From an uncultured Anaerolineaceae bacterium (GTDB lineage: Bacteria > Chloroflexota > Anaerolineae > Anaerolineales > UBA4823), in contig CAYGZL010000032.1 in NCBI GenBank assembly GCA_964354345.1, positions 128,684 to 192,683 of the forward strand: 64,000 bases of DNA. The letters run 5' to 3'. The position numbers and the translations under genes are program-made. Positions 2-32,949 of the stretch are shown one piece after another. Numbering within the stretch: position 1 is the stretch's first letter; the number at the start of each line of letters is the position of its first letter. The notes below the pieces were generated by a model, which ran no database searches, was not told where the DNA came from, and was given only the letters and a program-made list of their open reading frames with translations.

Positions 2-2680
2 GGCATGGTGCAATTTAAGGATGTCTTCCTGGGCACTGATACACGACCGTATTCACGGGCAGTAAACTCGCAGAAGTGTATGCGCGTGGCTGGCAAGCAT
101 AACGACCTGGAGGATGTCGGTCGGGATGACACACACCACACCTTTTTTGAGATGCTGGGAAACTGGTCCTTTGGCGATTACTATAAAAAGGAAGCCATTA
201 CCTGGGCCTGGGAACTACTCACTGAGGTATGGGGGCTACCCAAAGACCGCTTGTACGCGACCTGCTTTGAAGATGAAAAAGGCAAAATCGAACGAGACGA
301 CGAAGCCGCAATTAATTGGCGCCAGCAACCAGGTTTCAATCCAAACCATGTGCTGTTTTTTGGGCGAAAGGACAATTTCTGGGAAATGGCAGAGACCGGT
401 CCGTGTGGACCCTGCTCAGAAATCCACATTGATCGTGGGATCGAGTTTTGTAACCAACAAGATATCTCCGGGCATGTGTGCGGCGTCAACGGGGATTGCA
501 CTCGCTTCTTAGAACTGTGGAATCTGGTCTTTATCCAATATAATCGCCTGAGCCCAACCACTCTGGAACCACTGGCTGCCAAGCATGTGGACACTGGGAT
601 GGGCTTCGAGCGGATCGTGTCTGTGCTCCAGAATGTCGATTCTAACTATAAAACCGATGTCCTGGCACCCCTTATGGATATTGTTCAGCAATTAACCGGT
701 CATAGTGACATCGAACGACAGGAAAACCCGACCCCATATCGAGTGATTGCAGATCATGCGCGCGCCGCGGCGTTCTTGATCGCCGATGGCGTCGTTCCAG
801 GCAATGTCGGGCGTAACTATGTGTGCCGTATGATTATTCGTCGCGCGGCGCGTTTTGGTATGAAGATAGGCTTGAATCAACCTTTCCTGGCACAGGTTGC
901 CCAAAAGGGGATCGAAAATTATGGGAGTTTTTATCCAGAGTTAGCACGCAACCGCTCGGCGATCCTGACCAACCTGACCCGTGAAGAGGAACGCTTCCAG
1001 CGCACTGTCGAGAGTGGCCTTGCCAAGCTAGAGAACTTATTAGAAAAGCTGACCGCCAGTCGTGAACGCGATAGAACAATGCAGGAGGATGGTTCTGTTG
1101 TTTTATTTCTGCCTGGCGAGCAGGCTTTTGAGTTGTACGCGACTTACGGCCTCCCCCTGGAAATCACGCGCGATATCGCCCGTGAGCATAACCTCGATGT
1201 AGATGAAACTGGCTTTCGCCAGGCGATGGATCGCCATCGGCTGGCCTCCAGCGCGGGTGAAGCTTTTGGCTCTTTAGGAGGCAACGACGTTGATATTTAC
1301 CGGCAATTGCTGCAAGAGCAACAGGCGCTTGGGTTATTAGGTGCGGAGGGTGTCGATTTTCATCTATACGACCGAGTTGAGCTGCAACATGGATTGGAGC
1401 TGAGTGTGAAAGGACAGGTATTGGCCTTTGTGCGTGGTGGGGCTTCATCTCATGGTCAATTCGTTAACCAGGTTCAGACTGGTGAAAAGGTGGAAGTCTT
1501 GCTGGCTGAGACTTGCTTCTATGTGGAATCTGGCGGTCAGGTCTCGGATACGGGTACCATTCGGGCAGCCGATAGAAGCTGGGAAATTACTGTGACCGGC
1601 ATGCGTAAACCTGCTGCCGGAATCATCGTACATATCGGGGAGGTTTATCGTGGGCAACCAGCTGTTGGCGACTTATGTGTCGCCCAGGTGGATGTCGCAC
1701 GCCGGCAAGAGATCATGCGCAACCATACGGGCACACACCTGCTACATGCCGAGCTGCGCGCAGTTCTGGGTGAACATGCCCGGCAGGCAGGTTCACTGGT
1801 CGCCCCCGACCACTTGCGTTTCGACTTCACTCATCCGCAAGCGGTCGCCCCCGAGCAGTTAGAACGCATCCAGGCTGGCGTTAACCGGGCAATCCTGAGT
1901 AATTATCCTTTGCAAATTCAAGTCAAGCCACTCCACCAGGCAATGAGCGAAGGCGCTATGGCGCTTTTCGGCGAGAAATATGGCGATACAGTGCGCACGA
2001 TTAGCATCGGCGGTGAGCATCCCTTCTCTTACGAACTTTGCGGTGGTACACATGTCCCAGAAACTGGTGATATCGGCATATTACTGATCACGAGTGAGGG
2101 TAGCGCCGCGGCGGGCATCCGGCGTATCGAAGCCGTTACCGGGCGTGGCGCCTACGAACTCGTCCAGAGCCGATTCCAGGCATTGAAACGATCCGCCGAT
2201 TTGCTGGCAGCTCCGCCCGAGGAACTCCCTGCCCGAACAGAAATTATTCTGCAGGAGCTTAGCGAAGCACGCAAGCAGATTGCCACTCTACGCCGCGAGC
2301 TGGCTACCTATGAATTTAATCGTTCCCTGGATACTGTTCCGCTTATTGCAGGAGTGCCTGTGTTGACTGGCATACTTCCCAATGCTGACGCCGACACCTT
2401 GCGCCTGATGACTGACCGCTTCCGTCAGCATTTCCCGAGCGGGGTGGCGGTGTTGGGGAGTGTTGGCAGCGACGGGAAACCGATTTTGATCGCCGTTGTG
2501 ACTGAAGACCTGGTCAAACGCGGCCTGCACGCTGGAGAACTGGTGAAGTTCGCCGCTCAACCCTTGGGTGGAGGCGGGGGTGGACGACCGACTTTAGCCC
2601 AGGCTGGCGGTAAAGACGCCCGCCAGTTGGAAGCAGCGCTTAACAGTGTGTCAAGTTGGGTCGAAAACAAATTAAAATAA
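2..2680 (+). CDS. alaS: alanine--tRNA ligase, 5' end outside the window
   Basis: The ORF is open to the window edge. Motifs FEMLGNWSFGDYYK, editing-domain HTGTHLLH and CGGTHV, and the C-terminal GGGGGGRPxxAQAGG tract are typical of AlaRS. About 40 N-terminal residues are missing. Confidence 0.95.
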   Translation, partial: GMVQFKDVFLGTDTRPYSRAVNSQKCMRVAGKHNDLEDVGRDDTHHTFFEMLGNWSFGDYYKKEAITWAWELLTEVWGLPKDRLYATCFEDEKGKIERDDEAAINWRQQPGFNPNHVLFFGRKDNFWEMAETGPCGPCSEIHIDRGIEFCNQQDISGHVCGVNGDCTRFLELWNLVFIQYNRLSPTTLEPLAAKHVDTGMGFERIVSVLQNVDSNYKTDVLAPLMDIVQQLTGHSDIERQENPTPYRVIADHARAAAFLIADGVVPGNVGRNYVCRMIIRRAARFGMKIGLNQPFLAQVAQKGIENYGSFYPELARNRSAILTNLTREEERFQRTVESGLAKLENLLEKLTASRERDRTMQEDGSVVLFLPGEQAFELYATYGLPLEITRDIAREHNLDVDETGFRQAMDRHRLASSAGEAFGSLGGNDVDIYRQLLQEQQALGLLGAEGVDFHLYDRVELQHGLELSVKGQVLAFVRGGASSHGQFVNQVQTGEKVEVLLAETCFYVESGGQVSDTGTIRAADRSWEITVTGMRKPAAGIIVHIGEVYRGQPAVGDLCVAQVDVARRQEIMRNHTGTHLLHAELRAVLGEHARQAGSLVAPDHLRFDFTHPQAVAPEQLERIQAGVNRAILSNYPLQIQVKPLHQAMSEGAMALFGEKYGDTVRTISIGGEHPFSYELCGGTHVPETGDIGILLITSEGSAAAGIRRIEAVTGRGAYELVQSRFQALKRSADLLAAPPEELPARTEIILQELSEARKQIATLRRELATYEFNRSLDTVPLIAGVPVLTGILPNADADTLRLMTDRFRQHFPSGVAVLGSVGSDGKPILIAVVTEDLVKRGLHAGELVKFAAQPLGGGGGGRPTLAQAGGKDARQLEAALNSVSSWVENKLK

Positions 2681-12433: not shown

Positions 12434-13573
12434 ATGCGTCGCCTGCTCTCACTCCTCGTTTCACTATCCCCAATCTTATTGATTATCCTGTGCCTGGCCG
12501 CGATTGTCCTGGGATGGTTCGCCTGGCGTCTACCTGAGCAAGCGGAAACCACCTTCGGCCCGTCTGCCCCCAGCTTGGGCTTAATTCAACGGGTATACCT
12601 GTCTGCACAACTCACGTTGTTGTCAGATAACCTGACTAAAGCCAATGAACCCAACGGAACAGATCGCTCATTTTCGATTCAATTGGGCGAGTCTACTCTC
12701 TCCATCACCAATCGCCTCGAACAGGAAGGTTTTATTTCGAGCTCCCAGGCGCTGCGGACCTATCTGGTTTATTCTGGTCTGGATACTACCTTACAAACGG
12801 GCGACTACCATCTCAGCCCGGCCATGACTCCATTGGAAATAACCCAAAAATTTCAGAACGCCAGTTCTACCGATGTAAAATTCCGCATTTTAGCAGGTTG
12901 GCGCATCGAAGAAATCGCCGCTGCTTTACCCACCTCGGGGTTGGATATTACACCCGAGGCGTTTCAACAAGCAGCTTACCATCCTTATTTGCCACCTGAT
13001 CTAACCATTAATCTCCCAGATGGCGCGTCGCTCGAGGGTTTCTTATATCCTGATCTGTATCAGTTCCCTCGATCGATCGGGGTTAATGATTTTCTCAAGG
13101 GTCTGGTGGTCCGTTTCTCAGAGCAGAACAATGAGGAACTATCCCAAGGCTTTGAAAAGCAAGGATTAAGCGTTTTCGAGGCAGTCACCCTGGCCTCCAT
13201 TATCCAACGCGAAGCGATTGTTGAAGAAGAAATGCCGATGATTGCCTCTGTCTTTTATAACCGCCTGGCAACTGGAATGAAGCTTGACTCTGATCCAACC
13301 GTCCAATATGCACTGGGTTATATACCAGAGAGAAAGGGATGGTGGAAAAATCCTCTCAGCCTGGAAGATCTCCAGGTAAATTCACCCTATAATACTTATC
13401 TGAATAAAGGCCTGCCTCCTGGACCGATTTCTAATCCGAGTCTGAACGCTATCATGGCAGTCGCTTTTCCTGCTCAGACTCCCTATTTTTACTTCCGGGC
13501 AGCCTGTGATGGCTCGGGATTGCATTTATTTTCTAAGACATTTCAGGAACATTTAAATAAAGGCTGCCCGTAA
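12434..13573 (+). CDS. mltG: endolytic murein transglycosylase MltG (YceG family)
   Basis: N-terminal TM helix. ASIIQREA, VFYNRL..MKLDSDPTVQYALG and SPYNTYLNKGLPPGPISNPS are YceG-like motifs. Confidence 0.9.
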   Translation: MRRLLSLLVSLSPILLIILCLAAIVLGWFAWRLPEQAETTFGPSAPSLGLIQRVYLSAQLTLLSDNLTKANEPNGTDRSFSIQLGESTLSITNRLEQEGFISSSQALRTYLVYSGLDTTLQTGDYHLSPAMTPLEITQKFQNASSTDVKFRILAGWRIEEIAAALPTSGLDITPEAFQQAAYHPYLPPDLTINLPDGASLEGFLYPDLYQFPRSIGVNDFLKGLVVRFSEQNNEELSQGFEKQGLSVFEAVTLASIIQREAIVEEEMPMIASVFYNRLATGMKLDSDPTVQYALGYIPERKGWWKNPLSLEDLQVNSPYNTYLNKGLPPGPISNPSLNAIMAVAFPAQTPYFYFRAACDGSGLHLFSKTFQEHLNKGCP

Positions 13574-26594: not shown

Positions 26595-28382
26595 TCAGGC
26601 TGTACCTAAGCGAGCCCTCTCTTCGGCAGCCACACCTGGTTCTAGCTTACGGAACAGCGGCGCAGGTTGTCTTAGCGCCTGTCCGGGCTGGAGTTGGCTG
26701 GGTTGCCAGGCGCCGTTTGCCTCCCCTGAGCGGTACCGTAAAACCGTATGGTCTCCAAGCGCATCAGAATAGGTTTCAACGAACTGTTGCCCGAACAAGG
26801 GCTGGGTATATCCGAAGTAAGTGTGTAACCTTTCGGAGGTAAATGGCAAGAACGGCGCCAACAATATCTTGAGCGAGTCGATCGCTCGTAATCCGGTATA
26901 AATACTCTTTGCCGCAGCTTCACGATCACTTTTGATTTCAAACCAGGGCGCTGCCTTATCCAAATACTTGTTAACTTCGCCAGCCAGGCGAAAAGCCTCA
27001 ATTAAAGCAGCTCGCAGTCGAACCGCGCTTAGATGATCGCCAACACTTTGGAAACCCTTTTCAACCACAGACAATATTTCCTTGTCGGCAGGTCGCAGTT
27101 CTCCAGGTGTAGGGACTTGCCCTTGCCAGGTCCGATAGGCGAACGATAGAACCCGGTTAGCCAGATTTCCCCAGGTTGCCACCAGTTCATCATTGTTGCG
27201 GCGAACGAAGTCGTCCCAATCCCAGTCGGTATCCTTACTCTCGGGCATATTGATCGTCAGGTAATAGCGCAACGGATCTGGATCATAACGGGAGAGAAAA
27301 TCCAACCCCCATACCCCCCAATTCCGGCTCCCGGAAATTTTCTTGCCTTCCATATTTAAAAACTCGTTGGCTGGCACATCATAAGGCAGGGTCAGATGAG
27401 TTCCTTCTCGTTCATCGTAATATCTGCCAAACCATTCACCAACTCCTGCGAGTTGGGCTGGCCAAATCACTGCATGGAAAGGGATGTTATCTTTGCCAAT
27501 AAAATAGTATGCCCGCGCCTGTGGATTCAACCACCACTGCTCCCAGGCATCCGGCTGACCGATGATTTGTGCCCATTCAATTGCCGCAGACAGGTAGCCA
27601 ATAACTGCTTCAAACCACACATACAGACATTTACCCTCCCAGCCCTCCACCGGAACAGGGATACCCCAATCCAGGTCGCGCGTAATTGGTCGACCGTGCA
27701 ATCCTTCAGCCAGGATTTGCCCCAGCGATTGGCGCAACACATTTGGCCTCCAGTAGCCTTCTCGCTGGCGGAGAAAATTAATCACAGTCTCTTGTAAAGC
27801 CCCTAAATCCAGGTAGAAATGCTGGGTTTCCTTTAATATTGGCGTCGAACCATCCATCTTGGAACGAGGTTGAACCAACAAGGTTGCATCCAACAGGTTG
27901 CCGCAGCCATCACACTGGTCACCGCGGGCGTTCGGATAACCGCAAAAATAGCAAGTCCCTTCTACATAACGATCCGGCAAGAACCGCCCCTGGGAAGGAG
28001 CATACCATTGTTGTTGCCGATCGGCATACAGATAACCTCTTTTTTGGAGCGCCAGAAAGATTGATTGAGAGACCTTGAAATGGTTTGCGGTATGGGTGCT
28101 GGTATATAGATCGTATGTCAGGCCTAGTTTTTGGAAAAGCTCCAAAAAACCAGCATGGTACTTTTGATACACCTCCAGCGCAGTTGTCTTTTCGACATCC
28201 GCCCGAACGGTTACAGGCGTACCATGCGCATCCGATCCAGATACCATGATCACCCGGTTACCTGCCAGGCGGTGATAACGCGCAAAAATATCCGCCGGTA
28301 AATAAGAACCAGTGATATTACCAACATGAATTAGGGAATTGGCATACGGCCAGGCCACTGCAACCAGGATATTGTCTGCCAT
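26595..28382 (-). CDS. metG: methionine--tRNA ligase
   Basis: Class I motifs PYANSLIHVGN (HIGH-like) and KISGSR (KMSKS-like), plus zinc knuckles CYFCGY..CDGCG. 595 aa. Confidence 0.93.
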   Translation of the reverse strand: MADNILVAVAWPYANSLIHVGNITGSYLPADIFARYHRLAGNRVIMVSGSDAHGTPVTVRADVEKTTALEVYQKYHAGFLELFQKLGLTYDLYTSTHTANHFKVSQSIFLALQKRGYLYADRQQQWYAPSQGRFLPDRYVEGTCYFCGYPNARGDQCDGCGNLLDATLLVQPRSKMDGSTPILKETQHFYLDLGALQETVINFLRQREGYWRPNVLRQSLGQILAEGLHGRPITRDLDWGIPVPVEGWEGKCLYVWFEAVIGYLSAAIEWAQIIGQPDAWEQWWLNPQARAYYFIGKDNIPFHAVIWPAQLAGVGEWFGRYYDEREGTHLTLPYDVPANEFLNMEGKKISGSRNWGVWGLDFLSRYDPDPLRYYLTINMPESKDTDWDWDDFVRRNNDELVATWGNLANRVLSFAYRTWQGQVPTPGELRPADKEILSVVEKGFQSVGDHLSAVRLRAALIEAFRLAGEVNKYLDKAAPWFEIKSDREAAAKSIYTGLRAIDSLKILLAPFLPFTSERLHTYFGYTQPLFGQQFVETYSDALGDHTVLRYRSGEANGAWQPSQLQPGQALRQPAPLFRKLEPGVAAEERARLGTA

Positions 28383-28422
28383 GATAGACCTCCAGTTCTT
28401 CCATTTACTAAGTTCATCCCAT

Positions 28423-28455
28423 AGAAAGCGGGCTGTCCTGTGGTGGACAGCCCGC
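28423..28455 (-). terminator. intrinsic terminator inside the metG 5' leader
   Basis: On the minus strand GCGGGCUGUCC-ACCACA-GGACAGCCCGC forms an 11-bp GC-rich stem followed by UUUCU. It ends ~40 nt upstream of the metG ATG. Confidence 0.6.
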
Positions 28456-28523
28456 GGCGATATTTAAATCCTTATCGAACTACCTTCGCCCTACAGACAG
28501 CTGACCATACGGACGCGTTAAGA

Positions 28524-28592
28524 CTAGCCCATGCTGCGCATTAACATCGAGCGCAGAGTCATCCGTCGGTTCAGGGAGAAGAAAACAGTCAT
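28524..28592 (-). CDS. candidate Met-rich leader peptide (22 aa) upstream of metG
   Basis: The minus-strand ORF reads ATG ACT GTT TTC TTC TCC CTG AAC CGA CGG ATG ACT CTG CGC TCG ATG TTA ATG CGC AGC ATG GGC TAG, giving MTVFFSLNRRMTLRSMLMRSMG. A GAGAGG lies 9 nt upstream. It sits between a promoter and the terminator. Confidence 0.45.
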   Translation of the reverse strand: MTVFFSLNRRMTLRSMLMRSMG

Positions 28593-28620
28593 CTTCGATA
28601 ACCTCTCAAATATAGAGGTT

Positions 28621-28649
28621 AGTTTAAGGCCGCCTGGTTAATTTGTCAA
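28621..28649 (-). promoter_or_regulatory. sigma70-type promoter of the metG leader
   Basis: Minus strand: TTGACA (28649-28644), 17 nt spacer, TAAACT (28626-28621). Confidence 0.5.
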
Positions 28650-28662
28650 GGAGAAACGCGGT

Positions 28663-29169
28663 CTATTGTAATAATGCTAAACCGCTCAGATGAGGTTCTA
28701 TCTCCTCATCATCATGATGACAGGTGGATTCGCTTAAATCGTTGCCACAGATCGGACAAAGCCCCTTACAATCTGATTGGCAGATTGGGCTCATTGGAAA
28801 AGCCAGAATCATTTCTTCGCGAACCAGTGGCTCCAGATCGATTTTGCCTGTCTCAGGCACCAACAAACCTGAATCAGTTATGGAGTTCGGCGTAAAGGCA
28901 TACAATTCGGTAAAATCAATATTCAACGACTGATCAAAATCCTTGAGACAACGCCCACATTCCACTGTTGAAAATGCATTCAATTTCATCTGCAACAAAA
29001 GACCTTGAGCCGTCCGAGTTACCCGGGCAACGCCAGTCAGGTTGCGTAAATCCAGATCGGGATGCAGGTGAATTTCGGGAAAATCAAATGGAAATTCCCG
29101 ACTATAACCGGCAGTTTCGTGGATAATAAAGCCAACGTTAAGCTTCAGTGCATCACGTGGTGTATACAT
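28663..29169 (-). CDS. YceD/DUF177 family protein (23S rRNA accumulation protein-like)
   Basis: 168 aa. CGRCLKDF ... CKGLCPICGNDL cysteine pairs are typical of DUF177. Confidence 0.8.
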   Translation of the reverse strand: MYTPRDALKLNVGFIIHETAGYSREFPFDFPEIHLHPDLDLRNLTGVARVTRTAQGLLLQMKLNAFSTVECGRCLKDFDQSLNIDFTELYAFTPNSITDSGLLVPETGKIDLEPLVREEMILAFPMSPICQSDCKGLCPICGNDLSESTCHHDDEEIEPHLSGLALLQ

Positions 29170-29221
29170 CGGTCGGATTATAACATATGGCTACTATACT
29201 TCGATCGGAGGAGGTTAATCC

Positions 29222-29827
29222 ATGCGTTTATTGCTAGCCAGTACGAACAAAGGGAAACAGCGCGAAATCCAGGCGCTACTCCAAGGCCTGGGGGTTGAGT
29301 TAATCACCCCCGACCAGCTTGGCCTGGAATTAGAGGTCGTAGAAGATGGGCAAACTTACGCCGAGAATGCCGCGCACAAAGCCGTAGCTTTTATGCGGAC
29401 CTCAGGGTTGGCGACACTGGCAGATGATTCTGGATTAGAAGTAGATGCCCTGAATGGGTTGCCCGGTTTGCATTCGGCACGATTTGTTCCCCATCCAGGG
29501 GCTACGGATGCCGACCGGCGCAAACTTGTACTCGAAAAGCTCCAAGGCTACCCCCGTCCCTGGACAGCCCGCTTCCGTTGCGTGATTGCATTGGCGACGC
29601 CGGCTGGCCAGGTCTATACCGCTGAAGGGGTTTGTCCAGGAGAAATTATTCCCCATGAACGTGGGCATAATGGATTTGGTTATGATCCCATCTTTTGGCT
29701 GCCTGATATTGACCGGACCATGGCAGAGTTAGAAATGGTCGAGAAAAACCAGCTAAGCCATCGTGCCCGAGCGGTTATCGCCTCGCGACACATCCTGGCT
29801 CAATTGATTGCCAGTCACCCGGGCTGA
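29222..29827 (+). CDS. rdgB: non-canonical purine NTP pyrophosphatase (RdgB/HAM1 family)
   Basis: LLLASTNKGKQREI, DDSGLEVDAL.G.PG..SARF and GFGYDPIF motifs. Confidence 0.88.
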   Translation: MRLLLASTNKGKQREIQALLQGLGVELITPDQLGLELEVVEDGQTYAENAAHKAVAFMRTSGLATLADDSGLEVDALNGLPGLHSARFVPHPGATDADRRKLVLEKLQGYPRPWTARFRCVIALATPAGQVYTAEGVCPGEIIPHERGHNGFGYDPIFWLPDIDRTMAELEMVEKNQLSHRARAVIASRHILAQLIASHPG

Positions 29828-30709: not shown

Positions 30710-30783
30710 GGGCGGGTAGCTCAGTTGGTTAGAGCACTGCTTTGACATAGCAGAGGTCGTAGGTTCGAGCCCTATTCCGCCCA
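30710..30783 (+). tRNA. tRNA-Val (anticodon GAC)
   Basis: Hand-folded cloverleaf. The acceptor pairs GGGCGGG with UCCGCCC. D-arm GCUCAGUUGGUUAGAGC. Anticodon stem CUGCU/AGCAG with loop UUGACAU. T-arm GUAGG-UUCGAGC-CCUAU. Discriminator A. No encoded CCA. Confidence 0.9.
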
Positions 30784-30803
30784 CTTGTAGTATAATTATA
30801 TAA

Positions 30804-31088
30804 AGGCGATGACCGGGACGAGTAACCGAATGGTGAAACTGACAGGGAGAGGAGATCAGCGACTGAAAGTCTCCTTCAGATCACAACGGCGAAAACCACC
30901 CGAGAGCATGAACCCTAACCAGGCACAAATCCTGCAGTAAGGTAAACGGTTGACCCCGTTATCAGTCGTAATGAGATTTTCGAGGAAAATTTCCAGCCGA
31001 TGTTAATAACCGGATGGACCTTGGAAAATCTGGGTGGAACCGCGTGATGAAACTCTCGCCCCAGGTAGGACGAGAGTTTTTCATTTTT
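30804..31088 (+). promoter_or_regulatory. T-box riboswitch leader (Thr, ACC specifier) controlling thrS
   Basis: The Stem I base GGCGAUGA...GAGUA forms a GA/K-turn. The specifier region GAAAACCACCCGAGAGCA carries ACC followed by A at 30895-30898. The T-box sequence AAUCUGGGUGGAACCGCG lies at 31027-31044 and is followed by a terminator. Confidence 0.88.
31053..31081 (+). terminator. T-box terminator hairpin
   Basis: CTCTCG (31053-31058) pairs with CGAGAG (31071-31076) and is followed by TTTTT. It overlaps the 3' side of the T-box antiterminator region. Confidence 0.75.
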
Positions 31089-31152: not shown

Positions 31153-32949
31153 ATGGCTGAAAAACTACAAGAACCCTATGAGAAGAGCGATTTGTATCGC
31201 TTACGCCATTCGACCGCGCATGTCATGGCTCAAGCCGTGGTTGAAATGTTCCCAGAGGCCAAGTACACCATCGGACCGCCAGTTGAAGATGGTTTCTATT
31301 ACGATTTCGATCTACCCCGGCCACTCACTCCCGAAGACCTGCATTTGGTCGAAGAGCGTATGCGTGCGATCATCAAGGGCGACCATCCTTTCCAGAGGCA
31401 GGTTATCTCTGCTGAGCAAGCGCGCCAAATTTTTCAAGACCAACCCTATAAACTGGATTTAATTGACGGCCTGGAAACAGGTGGCCTGGATGAATATGGC
31501 AATCCGTTGACTGAAAAATCTGAGATATCCATCTATATTCAGGACGAATTTGTCGACCTGTGCCGTGGGCCGCATGTGGAGAACACATCAGAGATCAATC
31601 CAGCAGCCATTAAACTGATGAGCGTCGCGGGAGCTTACTGGCGCGGTGATGAGCATAACCCGATGCTGCAACGGATCTACGGCACGGCCTGGCGGACCTC
31701 CCAAGAGCTGGAAGAATACCTGTGGCGTCTGGAAGAAGCGCGCAAGCGTGATCATCGCCGCCTGGGCAAAGATCTCGGTTTATTCTATTTTTCTGAAGAC
31801 ATCGGCCCAGGATTGCCACTCTTCACTCCGAAAGGTGAAATGTTGCGCCACCTGATGGAAATGTACGTGCGCGAGACCCAGACCCGCTATGGTTACCAGC
31901 ACGTGTGGACTGGTCATATGGTCAAAGAAGATCTGTTCAGGCGCTCAGGGCATTACGAAAACTACAAAGATGGCATGTTCCCGCCGATGGTGGATGAAAA
32001 TATCACCTATCGACTAAAACCGATGAATTGTCCAAGCCACATGACGCTATACAAGGAGATGGGCAAACATTCCTATCGCGAATTGCCGTTGCGTTTGGCT
32101 GAGTTTGCCACACTGTACCGCTACGAGAAGACAGGTGAGTTAACCGGCCTGACCCGGGTGCGCGCGGTGACCCAAGATGATTGTCACATCTTCTGTACTG
32201 AAGAACAGGTGGAGCAGGAATTCACCCTGGCTCTCAATTTGATCAGGGAAGTTCTCGGGCGTTACCGGTTCACGGATTATAAAGTTCGTCTCTCGCTGCG
32301 CGGTAGCGGTGGCAAGTATGTCCAGGATGAGGAAAAATGGATCAAAGCCGAGGCTGCACTGCGTGCTGCTCTGGACAAGAACCAGGTGGAATATTTCGAA
32401 GCCACCGGTGAAGCCGCTTTTTATGGTCCGAAAGCTGATTTCCTGGCCAGGGATGTTCTCGGGCGAGAATGGCAGCTCTCCACCATTCAGGTAGACTTCA
32501 TTCAACCTGCCCGGTTAGGGTTGGTTTACATCGGTGAAGATGGACAGGAACACACACCGGTAGTGCTACATCGCGCTGTAACGGGTTCGACCGAACGCTT
32601 CCTGGGCGTCCTGATCGAGCAGTTCGCGGGTGCATTTCCCGTCTGGCTGGCGCCTGTCCAGGCTGTACTGATCCCAATCGCCGATCGCCACCTGCCTTAT
32701 GCCCATCAGGTCGCTGAGCAACTCAAAGCCGCCGGCTTGCGGGTGGAAGTGGACGAGCGCAGTGAACGGATGAACGCCAAAATCCGTGATGCCCAGAACC
32801 AGAAAATCCCTTATATGCTGGTAGTTGGCGATAAGGAAATGGTGCAGAACCAGGTCGCGCTACGTTTACGCTCTGGTGAAAATCCCGGTCCCATAGATCT
32901 GGCTGCTTTTCTAGCCAGGGCGCGTCAGGATCTGCAAGACGGTGTATAA
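31153..32949 (+). CDS. thrS: threonine--tRNA ligase (short form without the N-terminal TGS domain)
   Basis: Editing-domain HSTAHV, class II catalytic core (RLAEFATLYRYE, TQDDCHIF, FYGPKADF) and C-terminal anticodon-binding domain. 598 aa. Confidence 0.93.
   Translation: MAEKLQEPYEKSDLYRLRHSTAHVMAQAVVEMFPEAKYTIGPPVEDGFYYDFDLPRPLTPEDLHLVEERMRAIIKGDHPFQRQVISAEQARQIFQDQPYKLDLIDGLETGGLDEYGNPLTEKSEISIYIQDEFVDLCRGPHVENTSEINPAAIKLMSVAGAYWRGDEHNPMLQRIYGTAWRTSQELEEYLWRLEEARKRDHRRLGKDLGLFYFSEDIGPGLPLFTPKGEMLRHLMEMYVRETQTRYGYQHVWTGHMVKEDLFRRSGHYENYKDGMFPPMVDENITYRLKPMNCPSHMTLYKEMGKHSYRELPLRLAEFATLYRYEKTGELTGLTRVRAVTQDDCHIFCTEEQVEQEFTLALNLIREVLGRYRFTDYKVRLSLRGSGGKYVQDEEKWIKAEAALRAALDKNQVEYFEATGEAAFYGPKADFLARDVLGREWQLSTIQVDFIQPARLGLVYIGEDGQEHTPVVLHRAVTGSTERFLGVLIEQFAGAFPVWLAPVQAVLIPIADRHLPYAHQVAEQLKAAGLRVEVDERSERMNAKIRDAQNQKIPYMLVVGDKEMVQNQVALRLRSGENPGPIDLAAFLARARQDLQDGV

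Follow-up and report, generated by a model that had tools for sequence, protein, structure and literature searches.

A predicted leader-peptide transcription attenuator upstream of metG in the Anaerolineales

Leader-peptide attenuation has been described for leaders rich in Trp, His, Phe, Thr, Leu, Ile/Val and Cys codons, and the aminoacyl-tRNA synthetase genes for which it is known or predicted comprise pheST, trpS, leuS and paralogues of hisS. In Escherichia coli, the pheM-pheST attenuator employs a leader peptide to control phenylalanyl-tRNA synthetase, while in the Firmicutes, and in some Chloroflexota, RNA control of synthetase genes is usually exerted by T-box leaders (RF00230). Here, the 280-nucleotide (nt) gap between yceD and metG, the gene for methionyl-tRNA synthetase (MetRS), is analysed in a 64,000-nt stretch of DNA (hereafter the window) from an uncultured Anaerolineaceae bacterium (28383..28662, minus strand). 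The order Anaerolineales is a major lineage of sediments and of wastewater-associated samples, anaerobic digesters among them. On the basis of sequence comparison, the gap probably holds a leader-peptide transcription attenuator, which would raise the transcription of metG when charged tRNA-Met is scarce.

The metG leader resembles several described systems without coinciding with any of them. As in pheM-pheST, an upstream ORF (open reading frame), or uORF, rich in the cognate codon precedes an aminoacyl-tRNA synthetase gene, together with a terminator and a competing antiterminator, and the level of the synthetase would be tied to the charging of its own tRNA. The two differ in amino acid (Met, not Phe), in gene and in taxon (Chloroflexota, not Gammaproteobacteria), and share no sequence similarity. 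Furthermore, the regulatory codon of the metG leader is also the initiation codon, and the uORF of most members of the family described below crosses the antiterminator strand. With the trpL, hisL, thrL and leuL leaders, the window copy, as predicted from its folds, would share the 1:2, 2:3 and 3:4 pairing logic; the regulatory codons likewise precede region 2 by about 20-40 nt, and the short-form members of the family have their stop codon close to region 2. However, these leaders control biosynthetic operons and not a synthetase, the corresponding Rfam families (Trp, His, Thr and Leu leaders) find no match in the gap, and most members of the metG leader family lack a convincing 1:2 helix. 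Like a T-box, the metG leader would respond to tRNA charging and act on an intrinsic terminator before a synthetase gene, but a T-box binds the uncharged tRNA directly and requires no translation.

The pheM-pheST attenuator has been cited as the known case for a synthetase gene, alongside predicted leader-peptide attenuators of Streptomyces trpS and leuS (PMC1262725), and an attenuator with a His-codon leader has been predicted for Bacillus hisS paralogues (PMC2965389). These Streptomyces and Bacillus cases are similar in that a uORF with cognate codons was computationally predicted before a synthetase gene outside the Proteobacteria, while the amino acids and phyla are different. Neither PMC1262725 nor PMC2965389 refers to metG, methionyl or Chloroflexi in this connection. 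No Met-codon leader or attenuation of metG is described in the searchable full-text literature, which did not cover the broad 2010 survey of synthetase attenuators (Lopatovskaya et al.); these searches are consistent with the statement in a preliminary description of the window that such control of metG had no prior description. Methionine is a special case, since AUG also serves as the start codon and MetRS charges both the initiator and the elongator tRNA. A Met attenuator thus prompts one to ask how the signals from initiation and from elongation would be integrated. The predicted element would extend cognate-codon attenuation to the Chloroflexota, across many uncultured Anaerolineales, would mean that one genome combines T-box control (thrS) with a leader peptide (metG), and would represent a compact, testable sensor of Met-tRNA charging.

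The metG leader family and the reading frame of its Met codons

GTDB species genomes and JGI metagenomes contributed 80 metG loci each to the sample. The family was recognised by reading the upstream sequences, after which a profile was built from 44 non-redundant leaders (43 and the window); some tests used 29 members. A full-length leader is found upstream of metG in 54/160 related Anaerolineales loci, and each of the 54 profile matches in 962 kb lies directly before metG, on the coding strand. When the window is left out of the profile, 28542..28425 is still recovered (E=1.3e-10), and this profile, together with the MAFFT alignment, identifies the window uORF as a homologue of the family's Met cluster. 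BLASTN comparison of the window leader with the upstream regions of its relatives yields short matches only, located at the -35 box, the Met cluster and the terminator. The preliminary description had made its case depend on whether the small ORF and its Met codons are conserved in relatives; on alignment of the related metG upstream regions, both the uORF and the Met-codon cluster proved to be conserved.

The family shares a common layout. In the 5' part, a promoter of the form CTTGACAAA-17-TAnAcT (TTGACA-17-TAnAcT) is followed by either a Shine-Dalgarno (SD) sequence or a promoter-adjacent start codon, with TTGACW-16/18-TAnAMT found at the equivalent position in 43/44 members. The middle part consists of a short ORF with a dense ATG cluster, a conserved CGCGCC block and a conserved box, GGGCAGCC. 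After a variable spacer of about 45 nt (45-61 nt from the box), the 3' part is formed by a terminator (GGCTGTCC-loop-GGRCAGCC-T run; consensus GGCTG(T/C)CC-loop-GG(R)CAGCC, then a T run), which is conserved in all 44 members. The metG gene begins 22-160 nt 3' of the terminator hairpin across the members, and the GGAGG before it is conserved among the relatives. Examples of the Met-rich uORFs include those of L024 (ending in YSMAMMCSMAMLCSMAMDLRA and the stop codon), L005 (with the internal stretch NYMMMRVSMAAMMAMSGRAQRRAAS) and L069 (with the internal stretch MAGMSTMMEMMRRAASQAA). The gene upstream of the leader varies, and includes yceD (window and L163), a sigma-70 region-4 gene (L162) and genes with sigma-like C-termini (L001-L006). 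The leader thus travels with metG.

The positions of the ATG triplets were counted as offsets from the box, which is an anchor independent of reading frame. Among the 43 non-window members, the three frames relative to the box contain 178, 17 and 8 ATGs, respectively. An ATG is present at offset -22 in 31/43, at -28 in 30/43 and at -40 in 21/43 of these non-redundant relatives, and ATG makes up 121 of the 882 internal uORF codons in the family (13.7%). The Met codons extend from -22 to -46 relative to the box, with the last Met codon at a median of -22. With the last Met codon at -22 or further upstream, a ribosome stalled there would not cover the box. Outside the Met cluster and the Arg-Ala block encoded by CGCGCC, the leader peptides vary in both sequence and length (about 12-50 amino acids (aa)). 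Judged at the sequence level, a Met cluster that persists in an otherwise variable peptide is what attenuator leader peptides usually show, and fits neither a structured RNA nor a small protein that is itself functional.

Two forms of the uORF can be distinguished by the position of their stop codon. In the short form (8 members) the stop codon is situated 1-8 nt before the box, typically as CGC GCC TGA, while in the long form (35 non-window members) the box is read through as (R/W/Q)-A-A and the stop codon follows at +13 to +29, with 20/44 members having it at +29 from the box. The codon after CGCGCC alternates between TGG in the long and TGA in the short uORFs. The CGCGCC block itself, which lies between the Met cluster and the box (alignment columns about 84-90), is conserved nearly as well as the helices, and could be a pause signal, the source of a nascent-peptide effect or a pairing partner. 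The 5' ends of the leaders also differ. In the window and other members a 5' untranslated region of 20-30 nt with an SD sequence precedes the uORF, while in L009, L014, L057 and others the first in-frame ATG of the uORF is located about 7 nt past the -10 box; the sequences suggest that the leader peptide of these loci may be translated from a leaderless mRNA.

Competing helices in the family and in the window

The box GGGCAGCC is essentially a second copy of the 3' arm of the terminator and is complementary to its 5' arm; it thereby supplies the antiterminator that had not been found by eye when the window was first described. In the MAFFT alignment, pairing between the box and the 5' arm GGCUGUCC holds in 94.8% of cells; sliding the partner by 1-3 columns lowers this to 28-51%. 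The terminator helix is paired in 93.9% of cells, with 5 pairs changed on both sides, and its observed score is reached by 0/500 shuffles. When the 140 nt preceding each terminator are searched with RNAduplex without bias, the box is selected in 24/29 members. Compensating changes are found in L022, where CGGCAGCT pairs with AGCTGCCG, and the six members with C for U in the 5' arm all have G both in the box and in the 3' arm. As read from the alignment, such a three-way constraint on one sequence is what competing helices predict. The terminator appears in the minimum-energy fold of the full-length transcript of 44/44 members, and in these models the box:arm helix is the metastable antiterminator expected of an attenuator. 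When RNAalifold is applied to the 44 leaders, the terminator is the only consensus structure and no conserved 1:2 helix is found. The lack of any other conserved structure argues against an aptamer.

The elements reported for the window in the preliminary description were all located in the sequence. The promoter TTGACA-17-TAAACT is present at 28649..28621 and is the only sigma-70-like match of a consensus scan over 27800..29400. The uORF with its ribosome-binding site contains 5 ATG codons, of which 4 are internal and 3 lie within the last 7 codons. Given the ATG frequency of the window (0.0156), the probability of at least 4 ATGs in 21 codons is 2.9e-4, in agreement with the earlier estimate of 1e-4 to 1e-3. 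Across the six frames of the 64-kb window, six 12-codon stretches contain at least 4 ATGs, and the ATG count alone is thus weak evidence; the decisive argument against chance is the conservation of the whole layout among the relatives. The perfect 6-base-pair (bp) inverted repeat CTGCGC-TCGATGTTAAT-GCGCAG was confirmed at 28556..28534, and it is absent from the minimum-energy fold of the whole leader. The GC-rich terminator, which had been placed about 40 nt before metG, occupies 28455..28428 with its stem ending 45 nt before the ATG. According to the terminator scan, its 11-bp stem incorporates 9 G-C pairs and a 6-nt loop, and is followed by TTTCT. Its hairpin energy is -24.0 kcal/mol, it is stronger than the family average, and no further terminator of this type exists elsewhere in the window.

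The preliminary description had further called for an alternative structure that competes with the terminator; this takes the form of the box:arm helix in the family and of a fold switch in the window. The window leader folds at -88.6 kcal/mol, which is better than its shuffles (z=-4.22). In the minimum-energy fold of 28614..28458, a hairpin between regions 1 and 2 has an energy of -53.2 kcal/mol (z=-3.14), and 1/200 shuffles are as good. In folds constrained by a ribosome footprint, the terminator 5' arm has 0 paired bases when the ribosome is absent, at Met21 or at the stop codon, with 28613..28552 paired to 28511..28460. When the ribosome is placed at Met11, Met16 or Met18, the 5' arm gains 6-8 paired bases and 28507..28486 pairs with 28460..28441. 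As modelled, this switching reproduces the classical four-region logic. In a simple fold test of 29 members, the window and L012 are the only ones to show such anti-antiterminator behaviour. An alternative antiterminator in the window, UGGGCUAGUC, which overlaps the stop codon, is the best RNAduplex match (-15.4 kcal/mol) and was set aside as the less likely candidate because both MAFFT and the profile place GGTCAGCT, and not UGGGCUAGUC, on the family box.

Proposed mechanism and alternative explanations

The attenuator proposed in the preliminary description is supported by the conservation of the family, the frame bias of the ATG triplets, the competing helices and the lack of an Rfam match. 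In the window, transcription would start about 7 nt past TAAACT, and a ribosome would load on the 22-codon uORF. When Met-tRNA is scarce, whether through low methionine or low MetRS activity, the ribosome would stall at Met11, Met16 or Met18 and keep the 5' half of the leader unpaired, leaving region 2 free for the terminator 5' arm as it emerges. Pairing of region 2 with this arm would prevent the terminator from forming, and RNA polymerase would read into metG. When Met-tRNA is plentiful, the ribosome would reach the TAG codon and leave, whereupon the 5' half would re-pair with region 2, the 11-bp terminator would form and transcription would stop at the U tract, 45 nt before metG. Stalling at AUG, the coupling of transcription and translation in Chloroflexota and the regulatory output are the steps that we infer. 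In most family members, the box:arm antiterminator would tend to form by default and would be prevented by a ribosome positioned over the box or passing through it. On the evidence of the fold models, most members appear to rely on this direct occlusion of a default antiterminator by the ribosome, and the window lineage on the four-region arrangement.

It is possible, if rather doubtful, that the family represents a default-ON, three-element Met attenuator that reads both tasks of MetRS, and that the window lineage re-evolved the four-region design by way of an early stop codon and the 1:2 hairpin. Termination would then require both initiation (fMet-tRNAfMet) and fast elongation through the AUG cluster (Met-tRNAMet), and the ribosome would have to cover or pass the box before the 3' arm of the terminator is made. 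If true, failed initiation would induce metG, which is the opposite of the trp-type situation, where 'no translation gives super-attenuation'.

A number of observations weigh against the attenuator as proposed. The covariation of the antiterminator is thin, with only 2 cells changed on both sides, as both strands are nearly invariant, and in nascent transcripts that do not yet include the 3' arm the box:arm pairing is favoured in only 26/44 members. Four members (L149, L020, L081 and L083) are poor in internal Met codons, with one to three each. The response to a severe shortage of MetRS is hard to predict, because initiation at the uORF itself needs fMet-tRNA, and we know of no demonstration of tight transcription–translation coupling in Chloroflexota. 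Further points concern the window copy, which by sequence is a true homologue but an atypical member of the family. It is the only member in which the uORF stops about 20 nt before the box. A terminating ribosome at this position cannot occlude the box, and prevention of the antiterminator must come from the predicted 1:2 hairpin, the dependence on which is modelled by energy minimisation in one sequence. Its box carries two substitutions, so that the homologous register would include a U-U mismatch and a U-G pair, and the antiterminator segment 28510..28439 (-22.1 kcal/mol, z=-1.39) folds no better than its shuffles.

These features could also be read as signs that the window copy is the decayed relic of a working family element, which now acts as a constitutive partial terminator or as the terminator of yceD. 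In keeping with such decay, the TAG stop codon takes the place of the last Met codon of the family (offset -22 in the MAFFT alignment), the box reads GGTCAGCT instead of GGGCAGCC, the antiterminator segment is unremarkable in energy, and parts of the element have been lost elsewhere, with only the hairpin kept in L025, L080, L111, L112 and L156 and the leader deleted in L162. However, the copy retains an intact promoter, SD sequence and start codon, four internal Met codons and an intact terminator that is stronger than average, the alternative hairpin is unusually stable (z=-3.14 and -4.22), and the constrained folds yield the four-region logic. Moreover, the change from ATG to TAG takes two substitutions and is thus not a single nonsense hit, and an independent assembly (L161) carries an identical sequence. 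Decay is therefore considered unlikely. It is quite unlikely, too, that the element senses the general status of translation or coupling (ribosome availability or inhibitors) and not methionine, with the ATG cluster arising from NNC-AUG repeats whose CAUG palindromes form a pause or structure element. In many members, the RNA of the Met cluster is self-complementary (e.g. GCCAUGAUGUGCAGCAUGGC), the four members with few internal Met codons retain both the box and the terminator, and in the many members whose uORF crosses the box any slowing of translation would act alike. Yet structure alone needs no shared ATG frame, and the triplets are distributed 178 vs 17 and 8; no conserved helix is found in the Met cluster by RNAalifold; and in 962 kb the element occurs only before metG, whose product charges the tRNA for precisely these codons.

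The nucleotide-level conservation of the Met cluster, CGCGCC and the box would also suit a leader bound by a protein or small molecule, either through autoregulation by MetRS or as a riboswitch of the methionine/SAM (S-adenosylmethionine) type, with the AUG-rich block as the binding site and the uORF incidental. Threonyl-tRNA synthetase of E. coli offers a precedent, as it binds and represses its own mRNA leader. Against this, the gap gives no Rfam match at E<=10 and the terminator is the sole conserved structure, the ATG triplets show strong triplet periodicity, the stop codon recurs at +29 from the box in 20/44 members, an SD sequence or a promoter-adjacent start codon precedes the uORF, and the window contains no mimic of the CAU anticodon loop such as CUCAUAA. 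Binding of this kind is regarded as very unlikely. The in-frame conservation of the ORF together with its translation signals might alternatively point to a functional Met-rich micro-protein, with the terminator simply ending its transcript. This is extremely improbable in view of the variation in peptide length (about 12-50 aa) and in sequence outside the Met cluster and the Arg-Ala block, the alternation of the ORF end between TGA and TGG at one position, which creates short and long forms, and the location of metG 22-160 nt past the hairpin, with no second promoter-like site in 27800..29400 of the window.

Feature coordinates, neighbouring elements and variant loci

The features of the window locus are collected in Table 1.

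Table 1. Features of the yceD–metG region in the window, in order of transcription
Feature	Coordinates	Strand	Basis or remark
yceD, upstream neighbour of metG	28663..29169	minus	Pfam YceD
Promoter: -35 TTGACA, 17-nt spacer, -10 TAAACT	28649..28644 (-35); 28626..28621 (-10)	minus	Consensus scan, 10/12 matches
SD-like GAGAGG, 9 nt 5' of uORF ATG	28602..28607	minus	Read from sequence, SD heuristic
Region 1: 5' half of long leader hairpin (SD, start codon, codons 1-14), predicted anti-antiterminator	28552..28613	minus	Pairs with 28511..28460, sequestering region 2
Leader uORF, 22 codons + TAG, encodes MTVFFSLNRRMTLRSMLMRSMG	28524..28592	minus	ORF list
Regulatory codon Met11	28562..28560	minus	
Regulatory codon Met16	28547..28545	minus	
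Regulatory codon Met18	28541..28539	minus	
Regulatory codon Met21	28532..28530	minus	
CGCGTCC, homologue of family CGCGCC (Arg-Ala) block; 3' of uORF stop, untranslated in window	28511..28517	minus	MAFFT alignment
Region 2: antiterminator 5' strand UGGUCAGCUGUCUGUAGGGCGA	28486..28507	minus	Pairs with 28460..28441 in ribosome-constrained folds
Box homologue GGTCAGCT within region 2	28506..28499	minus	Aligned with family box GGGCAGCC by MAFFT and profile
Region 3 UCGCCGCGGGCUGUCCACCA: terminator 5' arm GCGGGCUGUCC (28455..28445) and part of loop	28441..28460	minus	Alternative partners: region 2 or region 4
Region 4: terminator 3' arm GGACAGCCCGC (28438..28428) and U tract UUUCU (28427..28423)	28423..28438	minus	Terminator scan
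metG SD GGAGG	28389..28393	minus	Read from sequence; 3' of terminator and left free by it
metG, MetRS, 595 aa, regulated gene	26595..28382	minus	Pfam tRNA-synt_1g E=1.6e-135 and Anticodon_3

The best matches of the window MetRS in the GTDB species genomes and JGI metagenomes are to metagenome-assembled genomes labelled Anaerolineales, Anaerolineae or Chloroflexota, at <=80% identity, and in a search of 5.8 billion proteins the only close relatives found form a 3-member 90% cluster. The leader of the independent assembly L161 is identical to that of the window. L163, with 81% MetRS identity and the same Ham1-yceD-metG synteny, carries a canonical short-form leader that ends in MLSGYATIRYSMAMMCKMAVIYRA and the stop codon, followed by GGGCAGCT.

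As the preliminary description had proposed, the gap was searched against Rfam for known RNA families; at E<=10 it contains neither a leader nor a T-box or riboswitch match. Around the gap, matches at this threshold consist of four weak C/D snoRNA-like chance matches, all inside the coding end of yceD, while at the gathering thresholds a single tRNA is found in the whole window. No T-box match occurs in 28300..28750 at E<=10, nor does the metG gap contain the T-box consensus sequence. A T-box leader is present upstream of thrS (31153..32949), at 30800..31066 on the plus strand, with a score of 81.2 bits (E=3.2e-18), below the Rfam gathering score of 93. The T-box sequence GGGTGGAACCGCG and a downstream terminator-like hairpin are visible in this leader, and a tRNA-Val(GAC) gene (30710..30784) lies just upstream of it. 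The organism thus uses T-boxes, but not for metG. Among 18 Anaerolineaceae metG loci outside the family, no known RNA was found upstream of metG, the matches being restricted to tRNAs and downstream cobalamin riboswitches. The latter (49-60 bits, plus strand) occur about 2.7 kb past the end of metG in L029, L030, L042, L044, L050 and L053, which are Anaerolinea-type cousins without the Met leader, and their position is conserved.

One profile match elsewhere in the window (13495..13573, plus strand; E=0.007) derives from the inverted repeat GGGCAGCC ... GGCTGCCC and was rejected as chance, since it sits inside the 3' end of a 379-aa ORF (12434..13573).

Several related loci deviate from the family layout. 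In L162, the closest diverged relative by MetRS identity (82%), the whole leader has been deleted; at 268..310 the -35 box CTTGACAAAT is fused almost directly to the GGAGG of metG, 41 nt past the sigma-70 region-4 gene. In the loci L025, L080, L111, L112 and L156, the yceD–metG interval retains a GGCTGTCC..GGACAGCC-TTTT hairpin about 30-60 nt before metG; they are without the Met-rich uORF and the box, the profile matches the terminator part only, and the hairpin appears to be an unconditional terminator. In L133, a canonical leader and terminator (1014..1137) are located about 365 nt upstream of metG (1501), and the interval between leader and gene contains an inverted repeat of roughly 20 bp, GAGCGTAGCGGAGTGAAGAATCCC ... 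GGGATTCCTCGCTACGCTC, which suggests that a small element may have been inserted between the attenuator and metG.

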